Shown piece after piece: positions 28,485-45,187 of a stretch of DNA of 64,000 nt. This DNA is from Dictyostelium discoideum (lineage: Eukaryota). Numbering within the stretch: the stretch's first letter is position 1; every line of letters starts with the position of its first letter. A program made the translations under genes and the position numbers. Location: NCBI GenBank assembly GCA_000004695.1, contig CM000152.2:640001-704000 (forward strand), read 5' to 3'. Below the pieces are notes generated by a model, which was not told the DNA's origin, made no database searches, and worked only from the letters and a program-made list of their open reading frames with translations.

Positions 28485-28520
<36 letters not shown>

Positions 28521-28575
28521 ATTTGTAAACTTATTATTTTCATTAATTTTATTTTATTTTATTTTCACTTTAGTT

Positions 28576-31500
28576 TTATTTTTTACTTTTACCAAAAAAT
28601 CTTGAGGAAGATTTTTTTTCATCTTTTTTCTTGGATTTATTATCTTCATCGATTAAGTTATTATCCAATTCGATGATAGTTTTAGTAGGGATTGAATTAT
28701 TACCTTGAAGATGATTATAGGATAAAGAGATAGTTGAGGAGGATCTAATTGGAGATGATTGGAAAGATAAAGAAGCAGTATGAGAACGACGTGGTTTCAA
28801 AGGGAATAACTCTTTCAAAGAGTCAATTCTATCTTGAATTTGTTGATGTAAAACCTGATGAAGTATTTTCTCTTCTGGATCGAAAATTTCGAGATCTGAT
28901 TGATTAAAGTATAACTGTTTCCAAACCTTGAATCTCTTTATGGAGCAATCAGGAAAGATGACATCACGCTCCTTTATGCCGGTTGGCTGATAGAGAGGGT
29001 TGATGTACTCTTTTAGATTGCCGTCCATCTCTGCCCAAAGACTGATGGTTTTGCCATAGATATGGTTTTGCACTCTCTCTTTCTCTGTGTTGAATAAAAA
29101 GTTACCATATTTGCCACTGTAGGAATGATAAAGTATAGTTTTCAAAAAGTTTGCATTAAATTCGAATTTGCTTGGAAATTGATGAATGATTTGGTAGCAT
29201 GCCTCAATGAATTGGTAGAGTATGGGTGATTGCTCACTCTCGTCTTTACCATGAACTTGACCACAACGTTGAGCGAATTTATGACCGAAACTAAGCCACT
29301 CCTTTTCAATTAGGATTTGAAAGCCTCTAATGGTTCTAAAGTATGGGTCTAGCAAAAGTTCAGCCAATGAGACCAATTGTGATGTTCTATCCCATCCATC
29401 ACTACAATGTACCAATACATTGTGATGTTGTAAATGAATTAGTTTTGCCAATCTAGTTGCACCTTGAATCACCAATTTAATATGACCAAACCAACCACTA
29501 GATTCCAATTGATTGAACCAGCCATCTTCCTTATCAATGGATGATACTGCTGCATCTTTAATCTTCCAAAGGGAATGTCTCATTGAATGAATATTTGCAA
29601 TATTTAAAAACTCTAATGTACAACCTGGATAATTATTTAATATCTCCCATCCTGCACCTTTTGCACGATTACCAACTGCATTTGCATATGGTCTACAATC
29701 TAATATATACAATGTTCTATCTGAACTATTATTTTCTTTATTACTACCACTACCGCTACCTCCGCTACCTCCACTACTACCACTACCAGCAGTACTTGTC
29801 ATACGAATTGAATTTAATAAATTTTCATCCTCAGTTGAACGATTACCACCAATGCCAACCATTGGCTGACTACAACGAGTGATTGAGCATTTATTAGACC
29901 AATGTCTATAGGAGAGTACTGGTATTCTACCTTTACTACGAAATTGTGCAACACTTTTCAATTGTTCATCAGTGATTGATTCTGGAACACCCATTAATCC
30001 TGGATAACTATCACAAATGAAATAGTTATAATTTGCATCTGATACTCTCCAATCTGGTGATGGTACACCCATACGTGCATATTCATCACGTGCACTATAC
30101 AATGTCCATCCTAATCCAACCAACTCCAATCTAGTATACTCTTGTCTAAGATTATAACAAAACAATGTTGTTGGACTTGTACTTTGATATTGTTCAATAC
30201 ATCCTCTAACATCTTTTAAACTTGAATTACTCTTATCAAATGAAATACTATGAATTCTATAATCCTTACAAATGAAATTTAATCTATATGAAAATTCACC
30301 ACCACCTTGTTTCTTTTTACCATTTTTAGTTAATTTTGAAATAGTATGTAATGAAAAATGTTTCTTTTTTAAAAAAAAAAAATTAAAAAAAAAAAAATTT
30401 AAATTAATATTATATATATATAAATATATATATTATAAAGTATATACTTACCACATATGGTTCATTCTTTGTTGTATAACCATAAAAAATAATTTGAAAG
30501 TTTGTTAAATATAATGAACCTTTTATAAATTCATCTTCAATTTCACTAAATTGATGATTATTCATATTGTTATTATTTATTGCTGTATTTTTTCTATTGT
30601 TATTATTATTTGATGGTTGTGTTGGAGTTGAAGTTGTCGTTGTTGTTGTTGTCGTTGTTGTTGATGATGAACCATTTTGTTGAATTCTTGAATTATCAAC
30701 TAAATGATAATTACAAGATTCAACTTTTAATAATAATTTCTCACCATCTGATAATTGAACATGATCAGGTAATTGAATGGTTCTAAATGTGTTTACTTGA
30801 TTTCTTATATTTCTAATCATTTCACCATAAAGTAATACTGTATTCACAGAGGTTTCAAAAATTAATTTCTTTTTAACTATTAATATCTTTGCTTTAATAT
30901 TATCTAAACATTTATGAATAAGTTGGTGCATTGATTCAATACTTTTAACTGATCTTTCATCTTTTTATTATTATTAAAAAAAAAAATATATATATTACAA
31001 TTAGTATTTTTTAAAATAATGACATTTTTGATTTGTGTGTGTGTGTGCGTGTGATTGTAATATGGTGTGGGTGGTTTTTTTTTACATACTTTTTTTACGA
31101 TTTGTTTTTGAATGAATAATATTAATTAATTCAGATTCTAAATTTGAATTAACACTTTCTTTACCATTTGAAAGATTTGATAAATTTATTGTGGCACCAC
31201 CACCACTAACTGATAAAGATGAAGAGGATGCTGATTGACGTAATGATTTTTGATTTTGATCATTAGAGTTTGATAATGATGGTGATGATTGTTGTTGTTG
31301 TGTTGGTAAACTTGGTAAATTTAAAGCAGCACCAAGAGAACCAGTTGATGTATTGGCTGTGATTGCACTACCACCATTAGCATTATTGTTATTTGATAAA
31401 TCTAAACTACTATTATTTGCACTATTATTACCACTACCACTGCCATTTGAACTATTATCAGTTGAATTATTGATATCCTCTAAAATCTTTTCAATTTCAA

Positions 31501-31801
31501 TTAAAGTTTCAGAGATTTTCATAATATCTTTAAATGATTGTGATACTTGTTTCTCCCTTTTCATTTCTGATATTTTAAAAATGATTGTATCAATAGTTTT
31601 ACTACTGATATCTTTTAATTTCTCCATTTTCTCATCGGGTCCCAATCCAGACAAATTTGAACTACTTCTTGGTTTATTACTTGGTGATAATAATTGTGAT
31701 AAAGAACCTTGAGTTTGAAGTGATTGTGTTGGTGGTAACCTAGATGATGTTGATGTTGATGTTGAGGTTGATGTTGTTGTTGCTGTTGTATTATTACTCA
31801 T
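28576..31801 (-). CDS. myotubularin-family phosphoinositide 3-phosphatase; 3 exons approx join(28576..30363,30452..30960,31090..31801)
   Basis: The last exon carries the myotubularin CX5R active site VHCSDGWDRTSQLVSLAELLLDPYFRTIRGFQILIEKEWLSFGHKF. The middle exon carries the GRAM-type motif GSLYLTNFQIIFYG. The first exon is S/T/N-rich. The junctions are a GTATGT donor in phase 1 and a GTAAGT donor in phase 0. The total of 3009 nt is divisible by 3 and gives about 1002 aa. Confidence 0.85.
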
Positions 31802-31961
31802 TTTTTTATTTTGGATTTTTTAATTTTGGATTTTTTTATTTTTTTTAATTTACATAAAAGTACAAATGTTGATATATATATATTTTATAAAATTTTATTT
31901 TTATTTTTACTTTTAGAATGGATAAAAATATAAGTTCTAAAAGAATAAAAAAATAAAAGAT

Positions 31962-32005
<44 letters not shown>

Positions 32006-32365
32006 GACACAAAAGTGATTGATTTTTTTTTTTTTTTTTTAAGTTTCCTAAAACCAAAAATTAAAATAAAAAAAAAATAAAAAAAATAAAAAAAATTCAA
32101 AAAAAAAATTCAAAAAAAAATTAATTAAAATAATCAACCAACTGGTAGTATTGATGCGTTTGCATTTGATTACATCATAAAAAAAAAAAAAAAAATAAAA
32201 TAAAATAAAATATAATATTATATTTTTTATAATAAAAAAAAAAAATGATAAAATATAATTTTGTTACTCTCAGCAATGAGAGAAATAAAAAATAATTAAA
32301 AGAAAATAAATTTTATTATTTTTGTAAATTTGATATTTGTGTATTTAGGGGGTGTGGTTATTTTT

Positions 32366-32404
<39 letters not shown>

Positions 32405-32610
32405 TTTTTTTATTTTTTTATTTATTACTATAATTATAATTATTTTTTATTATTATTATAATAATAAAAATAAATAAATAAAATAAATAAAAATATTATT
32501 TTTTAAAAAAAAACAATAGTATTATTTTTTTTTAATTTTTTTTTTTTATTATTTAAACTTTTTTTTATTTTATTATATTTTATTTTATAATTTAAAAAAT
32601 AATAATAATT

Positions 32611-33477
32611 ATGGCAGATATTGGAGGAAAAGTTTATTTTGTAAGTGGAGCTAGTGGAGGGATTGGGTTAGAGATGGTTATTCAATTATTAGGACAAGGT
32701 ATGAGGGTTGCAGCAACTAGTAGAGATAAAAAGAAATTAATTCAAGTTTTAAAAGAGAGGGATAATAGTTTGATTAGAGATGATAATTTCATTGCAGTTG
32801 AAATGGATTTAAGTTCAGAACATTCAATAAAGAAAGCAATCTCTGAATGTATTGAAAAATTTAAGACAATTTATTGTGTTATCAATAACAGTGGATATGC
32901 AATCAAAGGTACAATTGAAGAACTAAGTTTAAAAGAGATTCAAGAGAATTTCAACATCAATTGTTTCGGACCAATGATGGTGATTCATCATTTCATGCCA
33001 CATCTTAAATGTAAACCATATAGTGATCCAAGAATCATCAATGTATCATCAGTAGTTGGATTTAACGGTGATTTAATGAACCGATTTCCATGTTATGTCT
33101 CAAGTAAATTTGCATTGGACGGATTCACTGAATCAATTTCAAATGACTTGAAAAAGTATGATATCAAATGTACAACGGTCAAACCTGGTTATTTTATAAC
33201 ACCATTCAATGATCATATCATTCATTCAAAGGGTGAACAACCATTAACAGATCATGAAAAAGAAATTCTTGAAAAATATAATGCAACAAAACCAAAAAAT
33301 AATGGTAGTGACCCAATTAAAGGTGCAAGAGCTATCGTTGAAATATCTTTAAATCCAGAACCACCATTACATTTATTCTTAGGAAGTGATTCATTAAGAC
33401 ATGCTGATTCAAAAATTCAAAAAGTTCAATCTGATATTAATAAATGGATTGAATTAACAAAATCAACTGATAATTAA
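32611..33477 (+). CDS. short-chain dehydrogenase/reductase (classical SDR)
   Basis: This is a single exon. It has GKVYFVSGASGGIGLEMV (the TGxxxGxG cofactor motif), INNSGY (NNAG) and SS...YVSSKFALDGFTESIS (the catalytic Ser-Tyr-xxx-Lys). Confidence 0.9.
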   Translation: MADIGGKVYFVSGASGGIGLEMVIQLLGQGMRVAATSRDKKKLIQVLKERDNSLIRDDNFIAVEMDLSSEHSIKKAISECIEKFKTIYCVINNSGYAIKGTIEELSLKEIQENFNINCFGPMMVIHHFMPHLKCKPYSDPRIINVSSVVGFNGDLMNRFPCYVSSKFALDGFTESISNDLKKYDIKCTTVKPGYFITPFNDHIIHSKGEQPLTDHEKEILEKYNATKPKNNGSDPIKGARAIVEISLNPEPPLHLFLGSDSLRHADSKIQKVQSDINKWIELTKSTDN

Positions 33478-33735
33478 AAATTGTTTTTTTTTTAAATTTA
33501 AAAAAAAAAAAAAAAAATAAAAAAATAAAAAAAAAAAAAAATATCTCCCTAAACCACCTTTTCTTTTAAAAGTGACTTTTGGATAGATATTTTTTTATTG
33601 ATTATAATAAACACAATAATTTTTTTTTTTTTTTTTTTTGTTTTTTTTTTTTTTGATCATTTTTTTATTTTTTTTTATTTTTTATTTTTATTTTTTTTTA
33701 TAAATTTTGTCAAAATAATAATAATAATAACAAAA

Positions 33736-35487
33736 ATGTTAAAAAAATCATTATTTATTTATTTATTTATTTTTTTTAATTTTATAATTAAAATAACGAC
33801 AGCAGCAACAAGTGTAACATATTATGTTAGTGTTAATAATGGTAATGATAATATACCATGTGGAGAGAGTTTAGAAAAGTCATGTCAATCAATTCAATAT
33901 GTATTTAATCAATATAATTCAACCTATTTAAATAGTCAAGATATTATTGAAGTTATGATATTATTAGATGATGGTGAATATATTGGTGAAAATAATGTGA
34001 ATTTTAATATTTACAATATGACAATCACTATTCAACCAATTAATAATTCAAAAACACCGTCACCAGTAACATTCAATGGTATTAACAGTGCCGGTGATAG
34101 AGTTTTTAATATCACTGAACCATATTTAATTAAAACCAATGAAACAACGATTCAATATGGCATAAATTCAACATCATTAACATTAAATAATTTAAATTTC
34201 ATTAATTTCAATCCAACTATTGGTAATGGTAATGGTACCATTGGAAATGGTGCAATCATATTCATTGATATATTCAACTCATCATTATCTTTATCAATTA
34301 ATAAATGTAATTTTAATAATAATCAAGGTAATAAAGGTGGTGTGATTTATATGGAGTCTGAATTTTATAGTGATGGCAATAACCTTGTTGAAATTAGTAT
34401 AAAGAGTTCACAATTTACAAATAACAATGCAACTATATCAGGTGGTGTTGCTTATTTGGATGGATTTAATGATATTTATATTGACACTTGTTTATTTGAT
34501 AATTCATATTCACCAGTGTCTGGTACCTCAACATTATTCATATCAAATGGTGAATTTATTGAAATTAGAAGATCAAATTTCACAAGAAATCAAATTGCAT
34601 CAACTGTTGAATTATTTGGAATTCAATATAAGAATGGATCAATGGTAAAGGATTGCTTGTTTGATGGTAATGTTGTCAATGGTAAAGGTGGTGCAATTTC
34701 AATGTACCTAAGTTGGTTATCTGTTGATGGCACATTATTTAATAATAACTATGCTGGTGCAATTGGTGGTGCGATCTTTGCTACTGGCGTATCAAGTTAT
34801 TTACTTGTTGCAAATTCAAAATTCATTGATAATAAATCAAGTGGTGCTGGTGGCGCTATTGCAACTCAAGGTAGTGTTTACACGAGTTTAAACAATTGTG
34901 AATTCATTTCAAATTCTGCAAATGCCGGTGGTTCATTATCTTTTGAATATTCAAATCAAATTCATTTAAGAAATTGTACAATCAGTGGAAATGTTGGTGT
35001 TGGTCAAGGTGGTGCAATCTATTCATCCTATTCAACGATTTCAATGGATGATACTAAAATTAGTGCCAATCAAGCTTACCAAGGTGGTGCTGTCTATTGC
35101 TCCGCTTCAACTTTAAATATTACCAGTTCAAATATCCCATTGAATGGTAATACCGATCTTGGCAATGGTACAGACTCTTATGAATGGAAAGGTGAGGATG
35201 GTATAAAAGTCAATGATTATGGTATTTATTGTGCTCTAACTCCAACCTATACCTATTGTACTGTCAATGGTGATACACCTTATAGTAAACTTTGCGGTGA
35301 ATCCGATGTCACTGAACTTTCAGGTTTAACAGCTGGTCAAATCGCTGGTATTGTCATTGGTTGTACTATTGGTGCTGGTATTTTAGCTTTTGGTTTAGCC
35401 TGGGTTATCTCAAAAACAACTATTAAAGAACATTTCATTAGACTAAGAAGCTCTTCAACTTCTAATACATCTTATTCACTAAATTAA
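33736..35487 (+). CDS. secreted/type-I membrane protein with right-handed beta-helix repeats of the Chlamydia polymorphic-membrane-protein (GGA[IV] / FxxN) type
   Basis: I take the start at the ATG giving MLKKSLFIYLFIFFNFIIKITTAAT (signal), downstream of the poly-F leader in the ORF track. The repeats are FTNNNATISGGVAYLD, GKGGAISMY, GGAIFATG, FIDNKSSGAGGAIATQG, FISNSANAGGSLSF, ISGNVGVGQGGAIYSSY and ISANQAYQGGAVYCS. A C-terminal TM helix IAGIVIGCTIGAGILAFGLAWVI is followed by a short tail. Confidence 0.7.
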   Translation: MLKKSLFIYLFIFFNFIIKITTAATSVTYYVSVNNGNDNIPCGESLEKSCQSIQYVFNQYNSTYLNSQDIIEVMILLDDGEYIGENNVNFNIYNMTITIQPINNSKTPSPVTFNGINSAGDRVFNITEPYLIKTNETTIQYGINSTSLTLNNLNFINFNPTIGNGNGTIGNGAIIFIDIFNSSLSLSINKCNFNNNQGNKGGVIYMESEFYSDGNNLVEISIKSSQFTNNNATISGGVAYLDGFNDIYIDTCLFDNSYSPVSGTSTLFISNGEFIEIRRSNFTRNQIASTVELFGIQYKNGSMVKDCLFDGNVVNGKGGAISMYLSWLSVDGTLFNNNYAGAIGGAIFATGVSSYLLVANSKFIDNKSSGAGGAIATQGSVYTSLNNCEFISNSANAGGSLSFEYSNQIHLRNCTISGNVGVGQGGAIYSSYSTISMDDTKISANQAYQGGAVYCSASTLNITSSNIPLNGNTDLGNGTDSYEWKGEDGIKVNDYGIYCALTPTYTYCTVNGDTPYSKLCGESDVTELSGLTAGQIAGIVIGCTIGAGILAFGLAWVISKTTIKEHFIRLRSSSTSNTSYSLN

Positions 35488-35497
35488 TTCATTAAAT

Positions 35498-35574
<77 letters not shown>

Positions 35575-35815
35575 TAAACCATTTCTTTAAAGAAATAATT
35601 TTCCCAAGATTTTTTTTTTTTTTTTACTTTTTTTTTTATTTTATATTTTTTCAAATTAAAACAGTGGTGTTTTTGATATTCCCACATCAGGTGATAATAA
35701 ATAAAATCAAAAAAAAAAAAAAAATCAAAAAAAAAAAAAAATAAATTACTTTCTTTGTTGGTGCCCTAAAATTAACCAAATAAAAAATAAACCAAAGAAA
35801 AAAAAAAAAATATGC

Positions 35816-35846
<31 letters not shown>

Positions 35847-36129
35847 TATTCTCAATAATCCAAATTTACAAATTATGATCAAAAAAAAATCAAATAAATA
35901 TCTCACCACAAAAACAAAAAAATCATTAAAAGGTAAAAAATAAAAATAAAATTAAAAAAAAATTAAATAAATATCTGATTTTTGGTTAAACTCAACACAA
36001 AAAAGTCTGATTTTTATATTTTTATTTTTCAGTTTGCAGTTTTAATTTTTTTTTTTTTTTTTTATTTTTATTTCACACAAAATTTAAACAAAACAAAAAC
36101 AAATTCAAACACAAATACAATACTTCAAA

Positions 36130-36296
36130 ATGGGTCAAAAGAGTTCAAAACCAGGTATGTAAAAAAAAAGGTATCTTCCATTTAAAAAAAATAAAGTGGG
36201 TTTTAACCAAATCTCCATTTATTATTCATAGATTTAATTGCACAAGGAGGAAATAAATCTGGAACAACTTCAATCCGTACTACTTTTACTGCTTAA
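36130..36296 (+). CDS. candidate 29-aa micro-protein with N-myristoylation consensus (MGQKSSKP...), 2 exons approx join(36130..36154,36232..36296)
   Basis: The ATG sits in an A-rich leader (caaaATGG). Exon 1 (MGQKSSKP + G) ends at a GTATGT donor. A 77-nt AT-rich intron ends in TATTCATAG. Exon 2 reads DLIAQGGNKSGTTSIRTTFTA and ends in TAA. The ORF track does not call it because the exons are short. It lies in the 1.2 kb gap between flanking genes. Confidence 0.35.
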
Positions 36297-36359
36297 ATAA
36301 ATAAATTCTAATTTCTAAAATATCAAATAATTAATAAATGTATTTTAAAATTCAATTCC

Positions 36360-36395
<36 letters not shown>

Positions 36396-36611
36396 AAAAA
36401 ATAATAATTATAATTTTTATTATTAATTTGATTAACTTTTCATAAAAAAAAAAAAAATAAAAATAAAAAATTTGTAATTGAATTGAAAAAATAAATGAAT
36501 ATTTGAAAATATGACACCACAAAAAACAATTTAATTAAAACACTGAAATAATTTGTAATTTTGTGGGAGTGGCAAACAAATAAAAAAATAAAATCATTTA
36601 TTATTTTCTAA

Positions 36612-36651
<40 letters not shown>

Positions 36652-36728
36652 AAATTATTAAAAAATATGTGGTTGGAAAAAAAAAAAATCAGTTTTTGTT
36701 TGTCTTAGGAATACAAAAAATAATAACA

Positions 36729-39700
36729 ATGAAGAAATATAATTTTTTATTTTTAATTTTTATTTTAATACATATATCACAAAAAACTTATTCCCAATCA
36801 AGTAAGTGGAAAAAAAAAAATAAAAAAAAAATAAAAAAAAATAAAAAATAATAATAATCAACCAACAAATTTTTTTATTTTAAAATTAAGCTATTAAATT
36901 GAGTTTTTTGGTGTACGATCACACTCCATCAAGAAATCCAGATTTCGAAGCTGCAAATAGTGGAAGGGTTGAAAAGGGTTTAGTAAAAACAGATTTAGGA
37001 GCTGATGGAACACCAGTTTATTGTTGTGGCAGAACCAAGAAAGCATCAATAACAAGTGAAACAACTTTTTATTCTTGGTTTCATAATAAACCTGGTACAA
37101 ATTTACCAATTAATAAAGAAATTACATTGACTCAAAGTACAACAAATCCAAACATTTATTCTTATACCAATGGATCATTTTTTATTATTGACGGAGAAGG
37201 TTTTGATGATAAAGTAATTTTTTTAAATTTATAATATTTTTATTTATAAAATTTAATTTTAATTTTAATTTTTTTTTTTTTTTTTAATTATTAAAATGAT
37301 AAAAAGACAAAATATCCCAACGAAAAGTTATATTATGATCCTGCTAAAAAAGCAAGAAATTTTCATTATTGTATGTAAATCTTATTTTCATTTGAAAAAA
37401 AAAAAAGCTAATAACATTCAATTCAATAGGTGCTCAGGCTCATACACAATTCCAATATAAAACAGGTGATATTTTTTCATTTACTGTATGTTAAAATAAT
37501 TTTTTAAACAAAAATTTATAAATTTAATATTAAATATTTTAAAAAACAATTTAAAGGGCGACGACGATGTTTGGGTTTTTATAAATAATAAACTTGCTGT
37601 TGATTTAGGTGGAATGCATCCACTCTTCATCATCAATTAATCTAGATCAATTAGGGTTGACAAATGGCGCAAATTATAACTTTGATTTTTTTTATTGTGA
37701 AAGACACACTGATGGCTCAACAATACAAATTACAACATCATTAAAATTTGTTTGTCCGTAAGTTTTAGATTTTAAATTAACAAAATAAGAGAAAAAGAAA
37801 AAAAAACAAAAATTAATAAAGTATAATTTAATTATTAGATTTTATGATGGATGTGGAGTTTGCCAAGGTGATAACTCAAGTTGTTGTTTGCCAAGTAATT
37901 GTGACCAAAATCCAAAATATACTGCAAGTTGCCTCCAAGCAAAATGTGTTAATGGTCTTTGCAATGTTCCAGTAACTAGTTGTTCATCTGCAACTCCTTG
38001 TTTTGACAGCGTTTGTACACCATTTGTTGGATGTTCATTGGTACCAAAAAATTGTTCATCTGCCGACTATTGTAGATTGGATTACTGCAATCCAACCATT
38101 AATGCTTGTCAACATGATCCTATTCCTGATTGTATTAGTGTAAATATTTTTTAAATTTTTTAAAAAAAAAATTTTAAAAATTATATAGATTTTAATTTAT
38201 CATTTTATAGTGTTCAAATATAGGTTGTTTAACAACAGATAAATGCTTCCCAAAATCGTATGTTCATTAATGATTTTATTTTAATTTTTAAAAAAGCTAA
38301 AAGTGCTCTAACTTTGATTATATTTTTTATAACCTTCTAAAATATAGATGCAGTCCAGATGGAAAAAGTTGCATTACCAATACAAAATCATGTGATGATA
38401 ATAACCCTTGCACTACAGATACTGTAATATTATATTAAAAATAATTATATTTTTTATTTATTTATTAATTTTAGTTAACCATTTTCCCCCTAAATCACAG
38501 TGTTCAAATGGTAATTGCTTTTACCAAATTATTCCAGATTGTATAAATTGTGGTGGTAACCAATGTTTCAATACTGATAAATGTAATCCAACATCGTAAG
38601 TAAAACAATTTATTTTTGTTTATATTTAATTATCTGGATAATTAACAATATAAAAAATTAAATTATAGATGCGCTTCTGATGGTAAATCATGTGCTCAAG
38701 TCCATGTACTTTGTGATGATCAAAATCACTGTACAGATGATAGTGTATGTAAATAATTGTATTGCTTTTTTTTTTTCTTTTTTTTTGGACATGTGGAAAA
38801 TAAAAAAATCACACCCCACATTCCAACAACTTTGTTAACAAAATTTTTTATTTTCCTCAACTTACAATTTAAAAAATAAATAAATAATTTATAGTGTTCA
38901 AATGGATATTGTATTTCAAATCCTATACCAAATTGTATTGATTGTCCAGACACTGCTTGTATAACAACAGATTTTTGTAATGTTCAAGTGTAGGTTTAAA
39001 ATTAATCTAAAAAATTTAATTAACCAAATTATTAACAATACAAATGATTTTTATTATATTTTATACTAAATAGATGTAGCCCAGATGGAAAAAGTTGTGT
39101 TTCATCTCCAAAAAATTGTAATGATACCAGTTTTTGTACTATTGATAGGTAAATACAAATATTTTATTTGTTTAAAATTTAAAATTTGGATTTTCTAATT
39201 TTAATTATTTATATTTATTAGTTGTAATTCACCAAATGGAACGTGTTCACATTCATTTCCAGATCCTAAATGTGTATCTTGTGCATCCACATCATGTACT
39301 ACAACTGATGATTGCTTAGTTCAAGTTTGTAGTGATGATGGAGCCAGTTGTAATTCAATACCAAAAAATTGTGATGACAAAAACCCTTGTACACAAGATA
39401 GGTAAATATATTTTTATTTCATTAAAATAAAAACAAAAAGAATCAAAATTTTCAATTTTTTAATTATTATTTTAAATAAATAGTTGCTCAAATAATGGAG
39501 TTTGTGCATACACTCCCATTCCAAATTGTTCAATTTGTAACAGTACTTTCGGCTGCATTACCACCGATTTATGTCAACCAATGGTTTGTACAGATCCAGA
39601 TCTTAAATGTGAGATAGATCAAACTCTATGTAATGATGATAACTTTTGTACCACTGATAGTTGCTCAGGAAATGGTATTTGTGCACACACTCCTGTTGAT

Positions 39701-42700
39701 AGTTGTTTAACCTGTTCAAAAAATATTGGTTGTATTACTGTAGATAAATGTAATCCTCAGATGTATGTAATCATTATACCACTAATTAAAATAAATTTAA
39801 TTTTCCATCCCAATTAACTTTTTTTTTAAAAAAAAAAGCTGTTCAAATGATAATAAATCATGTATCACCGGAGATAATGGGTGTGATAAAGGTGATAAAT
39901 GTTCAATAGCTTCATGTGAATCGCCAGCAGGTAATTGTAAATCAACTCCAGTAGTTTGTGATGATAATGATCCTTGTACAATTGATAGGTAAATATAATT
40001 ATTAATAAAATATCATGATTTTAATTATAAACCTCTAACATCCTCTTTTAATTATTTTAATAGTTGTAACCCAGCAGATGGAACTTGTGTACATCAAGAT
40101 ATTAATAACTGTGCTGAATGTGGTAAACTTGGATGTATTACAAGCAATCCTTGTCAGCCAGTTTCTTGTTCAATCACTGGCACAGAATGTAATAAAACAA
40201 AAATTTCATGCGATGATAAAAATCATTGCACTCAAGATGCGTAAGTAAAAAAAAAAGAAAAAAAAACTTGTTAAAAGATAAACTATATTAATATTTTAAA
40301 ATAATTCTTTTTTTAGATGTTCGATAAAAGATGGCTCTTGTTATCATGCAACAATTAATAATTGTATTGATTGCGCAAATCAAGCGTGTATTGTAAGTTT
40401 AAAAACATTTTTTGATAATATGTTTTTAAAAAATACTAATTACTATTTAAATTTGGAACAATAGACATTTGACGCTTGTAAACCAAAAAAATGTGGAGCT
40501 GATGGTAATTGCTATGAAGATCCAGTAACCTGCGATGATGGAAATGGGTGTACAATTGATAGTTGTTCAAGAAATGGTACTTGTTCAAACAAATTAATTG
40601 AAAACTGTGTTAGTTGTAATAGTAGTTTTAATTGTATAACAACCGATTTTTGTGATCCACAAATTTGTTCAGGTGACCCATTAAATCTTAGCTGTATTAA
40701 AAATATGTCAATGTGTGATGATGGAAATTATTGCACAACGGATATATGTTCTGGTAATGGAGTTTGCTCTCACTCATCACCCGATCCTTTATGTAGATCA
40801 TGTAAATCAACAAACTGTACAACAACTGATTTATGTCAACTTCAAATATGTAGTGCGGATGGTAGTGGTTGTGAAACTGATCAAAAAGGTCTTTGTGATG
40901 ATAAAGGTAAAATACAATTATATTCAATTTTAATTCAATTAATTCTAATTCAAATTCTTTTTTTTTTTTTTTAGATCCATGTACAACCGATCTTTGTGAT
41001 AAAGGAGTTTGTACTCACCCAAAAATTACTGATTGTATGGCATGTAATGAAACATTTGCTTGTATTGTAAGTTTTTTAATAATATTTGAAAAAAGTATTA
41101 CTATTACTAATTATTTTTAAAATTATAATTATGATATAGACAACAGTATTTTGTGAATATCAGATATGTAGTAGTGATAAAACCCATTGTATTCAAACAG
41201 AAAGAAATTGTGATGATCAAAATGAATGCAGTACTGATTTTTGTCAAAGTAAATATTAATATATGTTTATTTTTACTATTTTATAATTTTTAATTTTAAA
41301 ATCTAATTTTATAAAATTCTTTTTTAGACGATCAATGTTCTCATTATTTTCCTAAAGATTGTTTCTTGTGTGGAAATCAAACCTGCCATGATTATGACAT
41401 ATGCTACCCAGCCTATTGTGATATCAGCACTTCCACTTGTGCCAACACTACTTTGACTTGTGACGATAAGGACCCATGTACAAAAGATATTTGTTTTTCA
41501 GGAACGGGTTGTGGATTTGTAACTATAGATAGGTGTACAAAATGTAATGAAACTGTAGCATGCATTGAAAAGGATTTATGTAAATCATTGCAATGTCCTG
41601 CCGATGGGTCTGATGAATGTATTTCCTCTGATAAGAATTGTGATGATGGTAATCCATGTACATATTCAGAGTGTGATCCTGAAACTGGTTCATGTATAGA
41701 TTCATTCATTGAAGGTTGTTCACTTTGTTCAAAGCCAGGTGTATATTGTTATTCACAAGATAAATGTTCACCATTAATTTGTAATGATGCTGGAGATGGT
41801 TGTGTTCAAATAAGTCCAAATTGTTCAGATCACCAACGTTGTACGAATGATACTTGCTCAGATGGCCACTGTATAAATACTCCAATCGAAAATTGTATGG
41901 AATGTATTAAAAATTTTCAACCAGTTTTTTCATTCATGGATGTTTCATTATTCTCGGATAATCCCTCAAATGATTCTTTTGGCTGCTACTCCTCAGATAA
42001 ATGCGTTCATGTTGACTGTTTAACTGATCATAGCTGCAATTATACTAAAATCGTATGTGAACCAGACAATTCATGTCATGATAGTTATTGTGATCAAGGA
42101 ATTTGTTATTCTATACCAAAAGAAAATTGTGAAGTTTGCTCAAAAACTTTATATTGTATAACTGATAACCCATGTGAGCCTAGTGTCTGTTCAGATAATA
42201 AAGATTCATGTATCACCAAACCTTTAAATTGTGATGATGATGATAGTTGTACAATAGATTCTTGTAGTCCTGATACCAATTGTACTCATACCCGTATTGC
42301 AGGTTGTCGAGCAGTTCCAACAACAACTGGAATAGCACCTCACACTCACTATTGTGACTATTGTCATGATACTGAAATATGTATTCTAATTGGTGATGTT
42401 CCTACTTGTGTACCAACATCAACAACATCATCAATACCATTAACAACAGTAACAACAGATATTGAATTAGTTGTTACATCTGGTATATATTCCACTGGCC
42501 ATTTCACTGAAAGTGGAACCACTTTTGGAGATAAACCCAGTACAACCACGTCAGAATTAGTATCAACAACCTCCTCTACACCTCCTTATTACAATCTTTG
42601 CGATAGAGTAAGATGCGGTAAAGGTTTAGAATGTTATATGATTGATAATAAACCTGAATGTCTACCATCAAATTACCAATGTATGGACTGTTGGGATTTA

Positions 42701-42811
42701 CTTTGTCATCTTCAAGATTTATCTTGTAAAATGGTTTTAAATCCCCATTTCATTACTGATAAATATGGTCAAGTTTGTTGTAAATTCATACCAACGTGCA
42801 TACCAAGATAA
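36729..42811 (+). CDS. psi/PA14-family-like secreted protein: signal peptide, PA14 domain, >25 cysteine-rich ~25-aa repeats (Dictyostelium prestalk/psi CTDC-like), S/T-rich stalk, Cys-rich C-terminus; ~21 exons; apparent frameshift in PA14 exon (possible pseudogene)
   Basis: Exon 1 is MKKYNFLFLIFILIHISQKTYSQS. The PA14 exons read ...YDHTPSRNPDFEAANSGRVEKGLVKTDLGADGTPVYCCGRTKK...FFIIDGEGFDDK | TKYPNEKLYYDPAKKARNFHY | CAQAHTQFQYKTGDIFSFT | GDDDVWVFINNKLAVDLGG / ECIHSSSSINLDQLGLTNGANYNFDFFYCERHTDGSTIQITTSLKFVCP. The repeat exons then follow the pattern CS(P/N)DGKSCxxxxKxCDDxNxCTxD | CSNGxCxxxxIPxCxxCxxxxCxTxDxCNP. They are split by 65-100 nt introns with GTAAGT/GTATGT/GTAAAT donors at recurring phase-2 / phase-0 positions. 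The terminal exon (about 41328-42811) is the 481-aa ORF. Confidence 0.7.
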
Positions 42812-43078
42812 ATTAAATTCTAAAACTATAGAAATGCATAATTAGGAGAAAAAAAAAAAAAAATTTTGAAAAAAATAAAAAAAAATTGGATAAAAAATGA
42901 CAACATCTGCTATAAATAAAAAATTAAAAATAAACATTACAAAAAAAAAAAAATTTATTATTTTTTATAATACCAACACTGACTCAACAAAGATATTTTT
43001 TTTTTTTTTTTTTTGATTGTTTTTTCATTTTCACTTGCCCAATTTTTTTTTTTTTTTTTTTTTTTTAATTTTACAAAA

Positions 43079-45187
<2,109 letters not shown>

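Follow-up and report, generated by a model that had tools for sequence, protein, structure and literature searches.

The DNA analysed here is a stretch of 64,000 nucleotides (nt) from Dictyostelium discoideum (contig CM000152.2, positions 640,001 to 704,000 of the forward strand), referred to below as the window. On its forward strand lies a gene of 21 exons and 20 introns, which encodes a PA14 domain followed by a long array of cysteine-rich repeats. In the homology-guided model, the gene runs from an ATG at 36729 to a TAA that ends at 42811. Many of its introns stand in register with the repeats, and its reading frame is shifted within the PA14 domain by a deletion of 2 nt (Table 1).

Gene structure and conservation

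The region is AT-rich, with short blocks of 25–38% GC alternating with stretches of 80–97% AT, and its three-frame translation is a string of short open segments rich in cysteine motifs. The gene, its domain content and its structure of about 21 exons are real. Together the exons come to 4471 nt, a length of 1 modulo 3; the intact form, seen over exons 3–21 in strains of 99% identity, would measure 4473 nt (1490 codons). The conceptual protein contains 201 cysteines in 1489 amino acids (aa). All 20 introns are of the GT-AG type, with lengths of 59–150 nt (median 76) and an AT content of 87.5%, against 66.5% in the exons. Retention of any one of them introduces 1–6 in-frame stop codons. The original prediction, made from the sequence alone, counted about 21 exons, and 21 were found, collinear with four orthologs and with the ortholog exon lengths kept. 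Two of its measures needed correction: the intron range of 65–100 nt was too narrow, and the 481 aa given for the final exon is the length of a mechanical open reading frame (ORF) within an exon of 1484 nt (about 494 codons).

The genome of D. discoideum contains about 17,300 introns, with 89% AT and a median length of 103 nt (table, PMC2483917). Other large ORFs in the window run for 800–900 codons uninterrupted. With a gene count of roughly 13,000, the genome averages about 1.3 introns per gene, so that 20 introns in one gene are far above the norm, as had been predicted.

The annotated ortholog proteins mapped exactly onto their own loci. The conceptual protein was collinear with those of the four orthologs, with no insertions or deletions at the junctions; ortholog exon lengths were identical or differed by multiples of 3, and intron lengths varied freely. 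The assemblies ACTFIW and ACTFIR, labelled D. discoideum, had the same 21 exons. D. citrinum, D. dimigraforme and D. firmibasis had 22, with the same lengths for exons 3–16, 19 and 20 in the numbering used here, and the architecture is conserved across group-4 species. In the comparison of the window with locus L001, exons were 94% and introns 84% identical, exon lengths differed by 0, −2 or −3 nt, and 18 of the 20 introns differed in length. Sequence comparison thus lends the junctions strong support. Synteny was also kept, in the order SDR gene, PMP-like gene, psi gene and UVB_sens_prot gene.

ACTFIW and ACTFIR shared only about 91% identity with the window across 14 kb (28517–44302 versus L001), and Logan contigs from other runs were approximately 99% identical. 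Assemblies named D. discoideum therefore span deeply diverged lineages.

Domain content and family membership

The original prediction of a PA14 domain and CTDC repeats was confirmed by a Pfam scan of the conceptual protein, with both above their cut-offs: PA14 scored 50.6 bits (2.4e-13; cut-off 24) and Dicty_CTDC (PF00526) 90.5 bits over 10 stretches (5.3e-26; cut-off 27). The NCBIfam model Fibro_Slime (TIGR02148) matched with 125.6 bits (7.8e-37; cut-off 45). The PA14 and Fibro_Slime scores were taken on a frameshift-repaired translation. The hydrophobic N-terminus MKKYNFLFLIFILIHISQ, read off the sequence, is a putative signal peptide, and the C-terminus has no hydrophobic anchor. The stalk rich in serine and threonine (S/T) that had been predicted in the last exon is present. 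The cysteine-rich domain behind it aligns with psiQ and psiR over the motif LCDRxxCxxGxECxxIxxxPECLPSNYxCxDCxDLxC. Its sole Pfam match, FOLN, was below threshold (18.3 bits, cut-off 21.1), and NCBIfam gave no match. An AlphaFold2 (AF2) model of the domain (predicted local distance difference test score, pLDDT, 71) consisted of beta-hairpins and a helix, and a Foldseek search of the PDB returned nothing at E < 0.001, the best hit being an EGF7-8 chain (E = 0.67), with a follistatin domain at E = 5. The earlier label of a terminal cystine knot (CTCK-like) was rejected as unsupported, since neither sequence nor fold matched it. An EGF/FOLN-like character is at most hinted at.

After the orthologs, the next-best protein cluster contained PSIQ_DICDI and PSIR_DICDI. 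The genes psiQ and psiR (DDB_G0293288, DDB_G0293286) encode the same order of signal peptide, PA14/fibro-slime domain, CTDC repeats, S/T-rich linker and C-terminal cysteine domain, with 48–49% identity over 55–56% of the query. By sequence similarity, the gene is assigned to the psi (PA14) family as an unnamed member of the psiQ/psiR subgroup. It differs from psiQ and psiR in being about 500 aa longer (17–18 units) and in its locus, which is a different one and has a conserved synteny of its own.

In D. discoideum, 21 proteins with PA14 only and 11 with CTDC only stand against just 3 with both (PMC4931340), so a long CTDC array is atypical of the wider psi family. PsiA (psi factor) and other psi/PA14 proteins are likewise secreted Dictyostelium proteins with a PA14 domain. 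PsiA, a prespore-inducing factor (PMC6830349), PsiF and PsiN are matrix-type proteins that were recruited as signals (PMC4931340), and all three act as signals outside the cell (PMC4931340; PMC6830349, citing Kawata 2004 and Yamada 2010). A literature search on psiQ and psiR turned up nothing specific. The CTDC matrix proteins ecmA, ecmB and pdiA have the Dicty_CTDC cysteine repeat in common with the product described here, in different domain combinations. Its domains, its S/T-rich linker and a C-terminus without a hydrophobic stretch, together with the analogy to characterised psi and CTDC proteins, suggest that the intact product is most likely a glycoprotein that is secreted and serves in the matrix, in adhesion or as a signal.

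Many bacterial proteins (Myxococcota, Fibrobacterota, Verrucomicrobiota and metagenomic sequences) carried CTDC and/or fibro-slime/PA14 modules, with E-values down to about 1e-57. These bacterial fibro-slime and slime-mold-repeat proteins differ in their domain combinations, and their genes are without introns. The sharing of these modules between bacteria and slime molds is already known.

Introns in register with the repeats

The array consists of 17–18 super-repeats, or about 35 half-modules, in line with the more than 25 cysteine-rich modules originally predicted. Each full unit joins an A module (CSxDGKSC-x6-CDDxNxCTxDx) to a B module (CSNGxC-x5-7-PxCxxC-x4-CxTTDxCxPxx). Fifteen introns interrupt the array. 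Six lie at the A|B boundary (alpha), two in phase 0 and four in phase 2, in registers 1 nt apart; four lie at the B|A boundary (beta), all in phase 2; two lie inside the B module at CI|TTD (gamma), in phase 0; and three have positions of their own. In the register of the repeat, 14 pairs of introns coincided against 0.6 expected, a value reached in none of 200,000 random placements.

Introns had been described as sitting at two positions of the repeat, with phases 2 and 0 alternating. The first statement fits the 10 of 15 array introns at A|B and B|A, the other five lying elsewhere. The alternation is confined to introns 7–11 in the first three units, where exons 8–11 measure 76/95/76/95 nt; introns 12–16 are all in phase 2. 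Exons 12–16 are symmetric (phase 2-2), and their lengths of 75/180/279/150/177 nt are multiples of 3. The last six units (u13–u18), all in exon 21, are free of introns and more divergent, in agreement with the unsplit, divergent repeats that had been noted in the final exon.

Table 1. Features of the gene and its upstream region. Positions are those of the window; u01–u18 are repeat units and A and B their modules.
Feature	Position	Strand	Size	Description
Upstream block	36540..36572	+	33 nt	conserved block ACACTGAAATAATTTGTAATTTTGTGGGAGTGG; G-box-like TTTTGTGGGAGTGG at 36559
Exon 1	36729..36801	+	73 nt	signal-peptide-like N-terminus MKKYNFLFLIFILIHISQKTYSQS; next intron phase 1
Exon 2	36891..37213	+	323 nt	PA14/fibro-slime domain begins
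Exon 3	37307..37370	+	64 nt	
Exon 4	37430..37485	+	56 nt	
Exon 5	37557..37757	+	201 nt (203 nt in all intact relatives)	PA14 core GDDDVWVFINN; holds the frameshift
CC deletion	37623..37624	+	2 nt	CATCCACCCTCT in relatives, CATCCAC--TCT here; place within the C run ambiguous
Premature TAA	37638..37640	+		shifted frame reads ...GGMHPLFIIN*; predicted product 199 aa
Exon 6	37839..38139	+	301 nt	PA14 end, degenerate Cys modules, u01 up to DCIS
Repeat array	38017..42349	+		17–18 super-units of 57–60 aa
Exon 7	38211..38257	+	47 nt	remainder of u01; closes at beta intron, phase 2
Exon 8	38348..38423	+	76 nt	A module of u02; closes at alpha intron, phase 0
Exon 9	38501..38595	+	95 nt	B module of u02; closes at beta intron, phase 2
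Exon 10	38669..38744	+	76 nt	A module of u03; alpha intron, phase 0
Exon 11	38895..38989	+	95 nt	B module of u03; beta intron, phase 2
Exon 12	39074..39148	+	75 nt	phase 2-2; A module of u04; alpha intron, phase 2, 1 nt upstream of phase-0 alpha site
Exon 13	39222..39401	+	180 nt	phase 2-2; B of u04 and A of u05
Exon 14	39484..39762	+	279 nt	phase 2-2; B of u05 and whole u06; closes at beta intron
Exon 15	39839..39988	+	150 nt	phase 2-2; half-unit u07 and A of u08
Exon 16	40064..40240	+	177 nt	phase 2-2; B of u08 and A of u09
Exon 17	40317..40392	+	76 nt	most of u09 B; closes at gamma intron (CI|TTD, phase 0)
Exon 18	40465..40906	+	442 nt	end of u09 to start of u12
Exon 19	40975..41066	+	92 nt	closes at second gamma intron (phase 0)
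Exon 20	41140..41248	+	109 nt	
Exon 21	41328..42811	+	1484 nt	intron-free, more divergent u13–u18, S/T-rich linker, C-terminal Cys-rich domain
S/T-rich linker	42410..42598	+	63 aa	46% Ser+Thr
C-terminal Cys-rich domain	42599..42808	+	70 aa	common to psiQ/psiR-type proteins; weakly FOLN/EGF-like

Paralogs and loss of introns

Paralog structures were taken from the counterparts of psiQ and psiR in ACTFIW and D. firmibasis. The ACTFIW counterparts had 18 exons each, and one in D. firmibasis had 19. The paralogs are thus as rich in introns as the gene in the window, and this richness is not peculiar to it. In a joint alignment, the gene and the psiQ/psiR-type genes had in common the intron after the signal peptide, two or three introns of the PA14 region and, in aligned units, several of the alpha and beta introns. 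The first of these positions, downstream of exon 1, was also occupied in a PA14+CTDC homolog from Cavenderia fasciculata. The gene has introns of its own (i4 and i6) and lacks two of those in psiQ and psiR. At one aligned unit, the alpha intron of a psiQ/psiR-type paralog (psiQ/R-b) was in phase 0 and that of the window gene in phase 2. On the evidence of the aligned sequences, the intron-dense, repeat-synchronous architecture is an old family trait, stable across group 4, that predates the split from psiQ and psiR.

Changes between species were seen as well. The 442 nt of exon 18 corresponded to two exons of 98 and 344 nt (347 and 341 nt in the other orthologs) in D. citrinum, D. dimigraforme and D. 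firmibasis, separated by an extra alpha intron in phase 2. The presence of this intron in three further species shows that the discoideum lineage has lost it, and lost it precisely. A psiQ/psiR-type paralog showed the same pattern (374 = 158 + 216 nt; L007 13404–17896 versus L013 1001–5394), the D. discoideum gene being without the D. firmibasis intron. Both intron absences in D. discoideum are at the A|B boundary.

A frameshift in the PA14 core

The frame of exon 5 changes in the PA14 core, between ...AVDLGGMH and SSSSINLDQLGL. At this site, the four orthologs read MHPPSSSS or MHPPASxS, and the DNA of the relatives reads CATCC(A/C/T)CC(C/T)(T/G)C... The frame was intact in seven related sequences (L001–L004, L006, L009 and L010). 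The closest of these, L009 and L010, are Logan contigs from other runs; they are genomic, with introns present, and were 98.9% identical to the window. Both had the intact CCACCCTCT and an exon 5 of 203 nt; their frame stays open from exon 3 through to the stop codon, with 1351 of 1357 residues identical. The deletion itself was found again in L005 (GCA_054883475.1, strain ACTFIT), a chromosome-level assembly in which all 6083 of 6083 positions of the gene were identical. Outside the gene, L005 differed from the window only in homopolymer lengths and three single-nucleotide variants; these differences show that it was not copied from the reference.

An error of assembly or sequencing in the reference, with the gene intact in the organism, is very improbable. 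The deletion does sit in a short C run (CCACCC), and every other genome examined was intact there. L005 is essentially the same strain, which weighs against reading the deletion as genuine, since only an assembly made independently of the reference would exclude a simple read error. Yet L005 was deposited separately and has exactly the same sequence, and a run of three C is an atypical error site. We conclude that the deletion is a genuine, recent strain-level polymorphism within D. discoideum. Its recent date follows from a ratio of nonsynonymous to synonymous substitution rates (dN/dS) of 0.36 against the 91%-identical ortholog, from a window branch that is not accelerated and from the finding of no second lesion in the 4.3 kb of coding sequence downstream of the shift.

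The 90%-identity cluster of the best protein match (P0001) had five members. Four were proteins deposited in GenBank with new Dictyostelium assemblies and the fifth was a fragment from Logan; none was an AX4 protein. A neighbouring ORF of 288 aa (32611–33477), the SDR gene, was identical to the AX4 protein XP_642281.1 / Q54YC1. AX4 apparently has no protein model for the gene, in keeping with a pseudogene call. In this the gene is unlike psiQ and psiR: it lacks an AX4 protein entry and is frameshifted in the AX4-type genome. Its sequence marks the AX4-type copy as a predicted young null allele, an incipient pseudogene.

In the annotation of ACTFIT, the protein KAM9948825.1 (P0130), a member of the P0001 cluster, has a 37-nt GT..AG "intron" of coding-like composition that spans the shift (L005 2881–2917, corresponding to window 37609–37645). 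This "intron" is probably an annotation artefact.

A frameshift-free model of 20 exons (model A), obtained by unconstrained dynamic programming, was rejected; it drops the PA14 core GDDDVWVFINNKLAVDLGG and half of exon 3, which all orthologs keep. We consider it improbable, if less so than a reference error, that the gene still functions here through such a bypass, by way of the 37-nt segment or of the acceptor at 37608 used in model A, either of which would yield a protein of full length whose PA14 domain is damaged or shortened. On the sequence, both paths can be drawn in frame, and the dN/dS of 0.36 and the 4.3 kb free of further lesions count in favour of a functional gene. An intact downstream frame is, however, equally expected after a very recent deletion, and strains diverged by about 1% are still without it. 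The 37-nt segment is also far shorter than the 20 real introns, has only about 65% AT and is coding in every relative, and the path of model A deletes the conserved core.

Origin of the intron-bearing array

The original prediction saw strong internal evidence for growth of the array by tandem exon duplication. The positions and phases of the introns and the symmetric exons agree with it; symmetric exons make a duplication of intron-bearing units frame-neutral. In animal modular genes (EGF, collagen-type), exons are symmetric, typically with phase 1-1. The array described here is like those animal exon-duplication arrays in its introns of constant phase at repeat boundaries, and in exons or exon pairs that are multiples of 3 nt and could be duplicated without a change of frame. 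It differs in its phases (2-2, or a 2-0/0-2 pair), in belonging to a genome that averages about 1–2 introns per gene and in duplications that would be too old to have left a trace in sequence.

The reading we favour, at a probability of about 75%, is that of a psiQ/psiR-related gene whose array arose by ancient duplication of units already carrying introns, followed by a loss of introns biased toward the 3' end, and of which the present copy is a young null allele. The units would have carried introns at A|B and B|A before they were duplicated, and the duplication would have preceded both the split from psiQ and psiR and the radiation of group 4. Afterwards, introns would have disappeared, chiefly toward the 3' end and in a process that may still be ongoing, and some would have shifted by one nucleotide, as in the alpha introns of phase 0 and phase 2. 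Most recently, the CC deletion in exon 5 shifted the frame inside the PA14 domain, with a predicted product of 199 aa.

Several observations weigh against this history. Duplication of intron-bearing units finds no support in sequence, the similarity between introns being that of a shuffled null in a test of low power. The units share only 10–47% of their non-cysteine residues, and neighbouring units are hardly more alike (27.6%) than units overall (approximately 24%). Units u02 and u03, the best candidates for a duplication of the 76+95 nt pair, are not each other's nearest units. The C. fasciculata homolog has only three introns, which all interrupt the PA14 part; its repeats are free of them. 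The junctions, moreover, rest on comparative evidence and on gene predictions by other groups.

The result for the introns has little bearing on either side. Smith-Waterman scores between introns averaged 24.0, the same as after shuffling (24.0), and pairs of the same class scored no higher than pairs of different classes. Orthologous introns, however, are themselves at background beyond the discoideum complex: 20 of 20 were recognisable within the complex and only 1–5 of 20 in D. citrinum, D. dimigraforme and D. firmibasis. An alignment of all introns, which had been proposed as a check for common ancestry, thus finds no similarity but has no power to detect ancestry of this age. The internal evidence for tandem duplication lies in intron position and phase and is less strong than predicted, sister units having been looked for and not found and the neighbour effect being almost nil.

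The most alike of the non-adjacent units were seven apart (u03 and u10, u04 and u11, u05 and u12, with 43, 44 and 39% identity at non-cysteine residues). These similarities suggest an old duplication of a three-unit block, u03–u05 to u10–u12. The two blocks differ in their intron positions, which demands later losses or gains and is a further point against duplication with introns in place.

Introns may instead have entered an array that already existed in the ancestor of psiQ, psiR and this gene, through repeated gains, or through a spread by way of gene conversion or reverse splicing, at a motif that recurs in the repeat. We regard this as unlikely. The intron-free repeats of the Cavenderia homolog would agree with such gains, as would the alpha introns in two registers 1 nt apart and the differing introns of the putative block duplicates; units without introns also keep the same exonic junction sequence, e.g., GATAGTTGT. 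The Cavenderia gene, however, may not be an ortholog, and the beta junctions have no obvious proto-splice motif in common. The same positions are already occupied in aligned units of the paralogs and of all group-4 orthologs, and losses are the only changes documented between species. Nor is there any similarity from intron to intron that would mark a recent introner-like burst, although the test for it has little power. Slightly more doubtful still is the form of this explanation in which the alpha and beta introns were gained in an existing CTDC array and spread in register, the two alpha registers then reflecting separate insertions or sliding.

Other features of the locus

The block upstream of the gene (Table 1) was identical in L001 and L006, two D. 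discoideum lineages of 91% identity in which the flanking AT-rich DNA had diverged. It is a possible developmental promoter element, a candidate on grounds of conservation. Intron 10 (38745–38894) is, at 150 nt, twice as long as usual, and its AT content of 79% is the lowest among the 20. It contains a C-rich element, CACACCCCACA, at 38810, flanked by ATGTGG and CCACAT; no conservation of this element was found in L001, L006 or other species. Downstream of the gene, an A run of about 80 nt (44272–44351) was missing from the otherwise near-identical L005, and homopolymer runs at 35547, 36364, 36616 and 44538 differed in length between the window and L005. Run lengths in the region are therefore unreliable. 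A tRNA scan of the window found none.

Implications

The clade of psiQ, psiR and this gene is a compact and well-conserved case of repeat-synchronous introns of constant phase in an intron-poor genome, with at least two precise intron losses and a register difference of one nucleotide. It makes a useful small case study, with no new principle. If the introns were in fact gained within the array, the clade would record a rare and datable episode of intron gain in an intron-poor lineage that is losing introns. The gene is a psi-family paralog that is probably null in laboratory strains. A close re-assembly masks the frameshift with a pseudo-intron of 37 nt, and close wild-type strains keep the gene intact, which is relevant to studies of psi/CTDC matrix and signal proteins.

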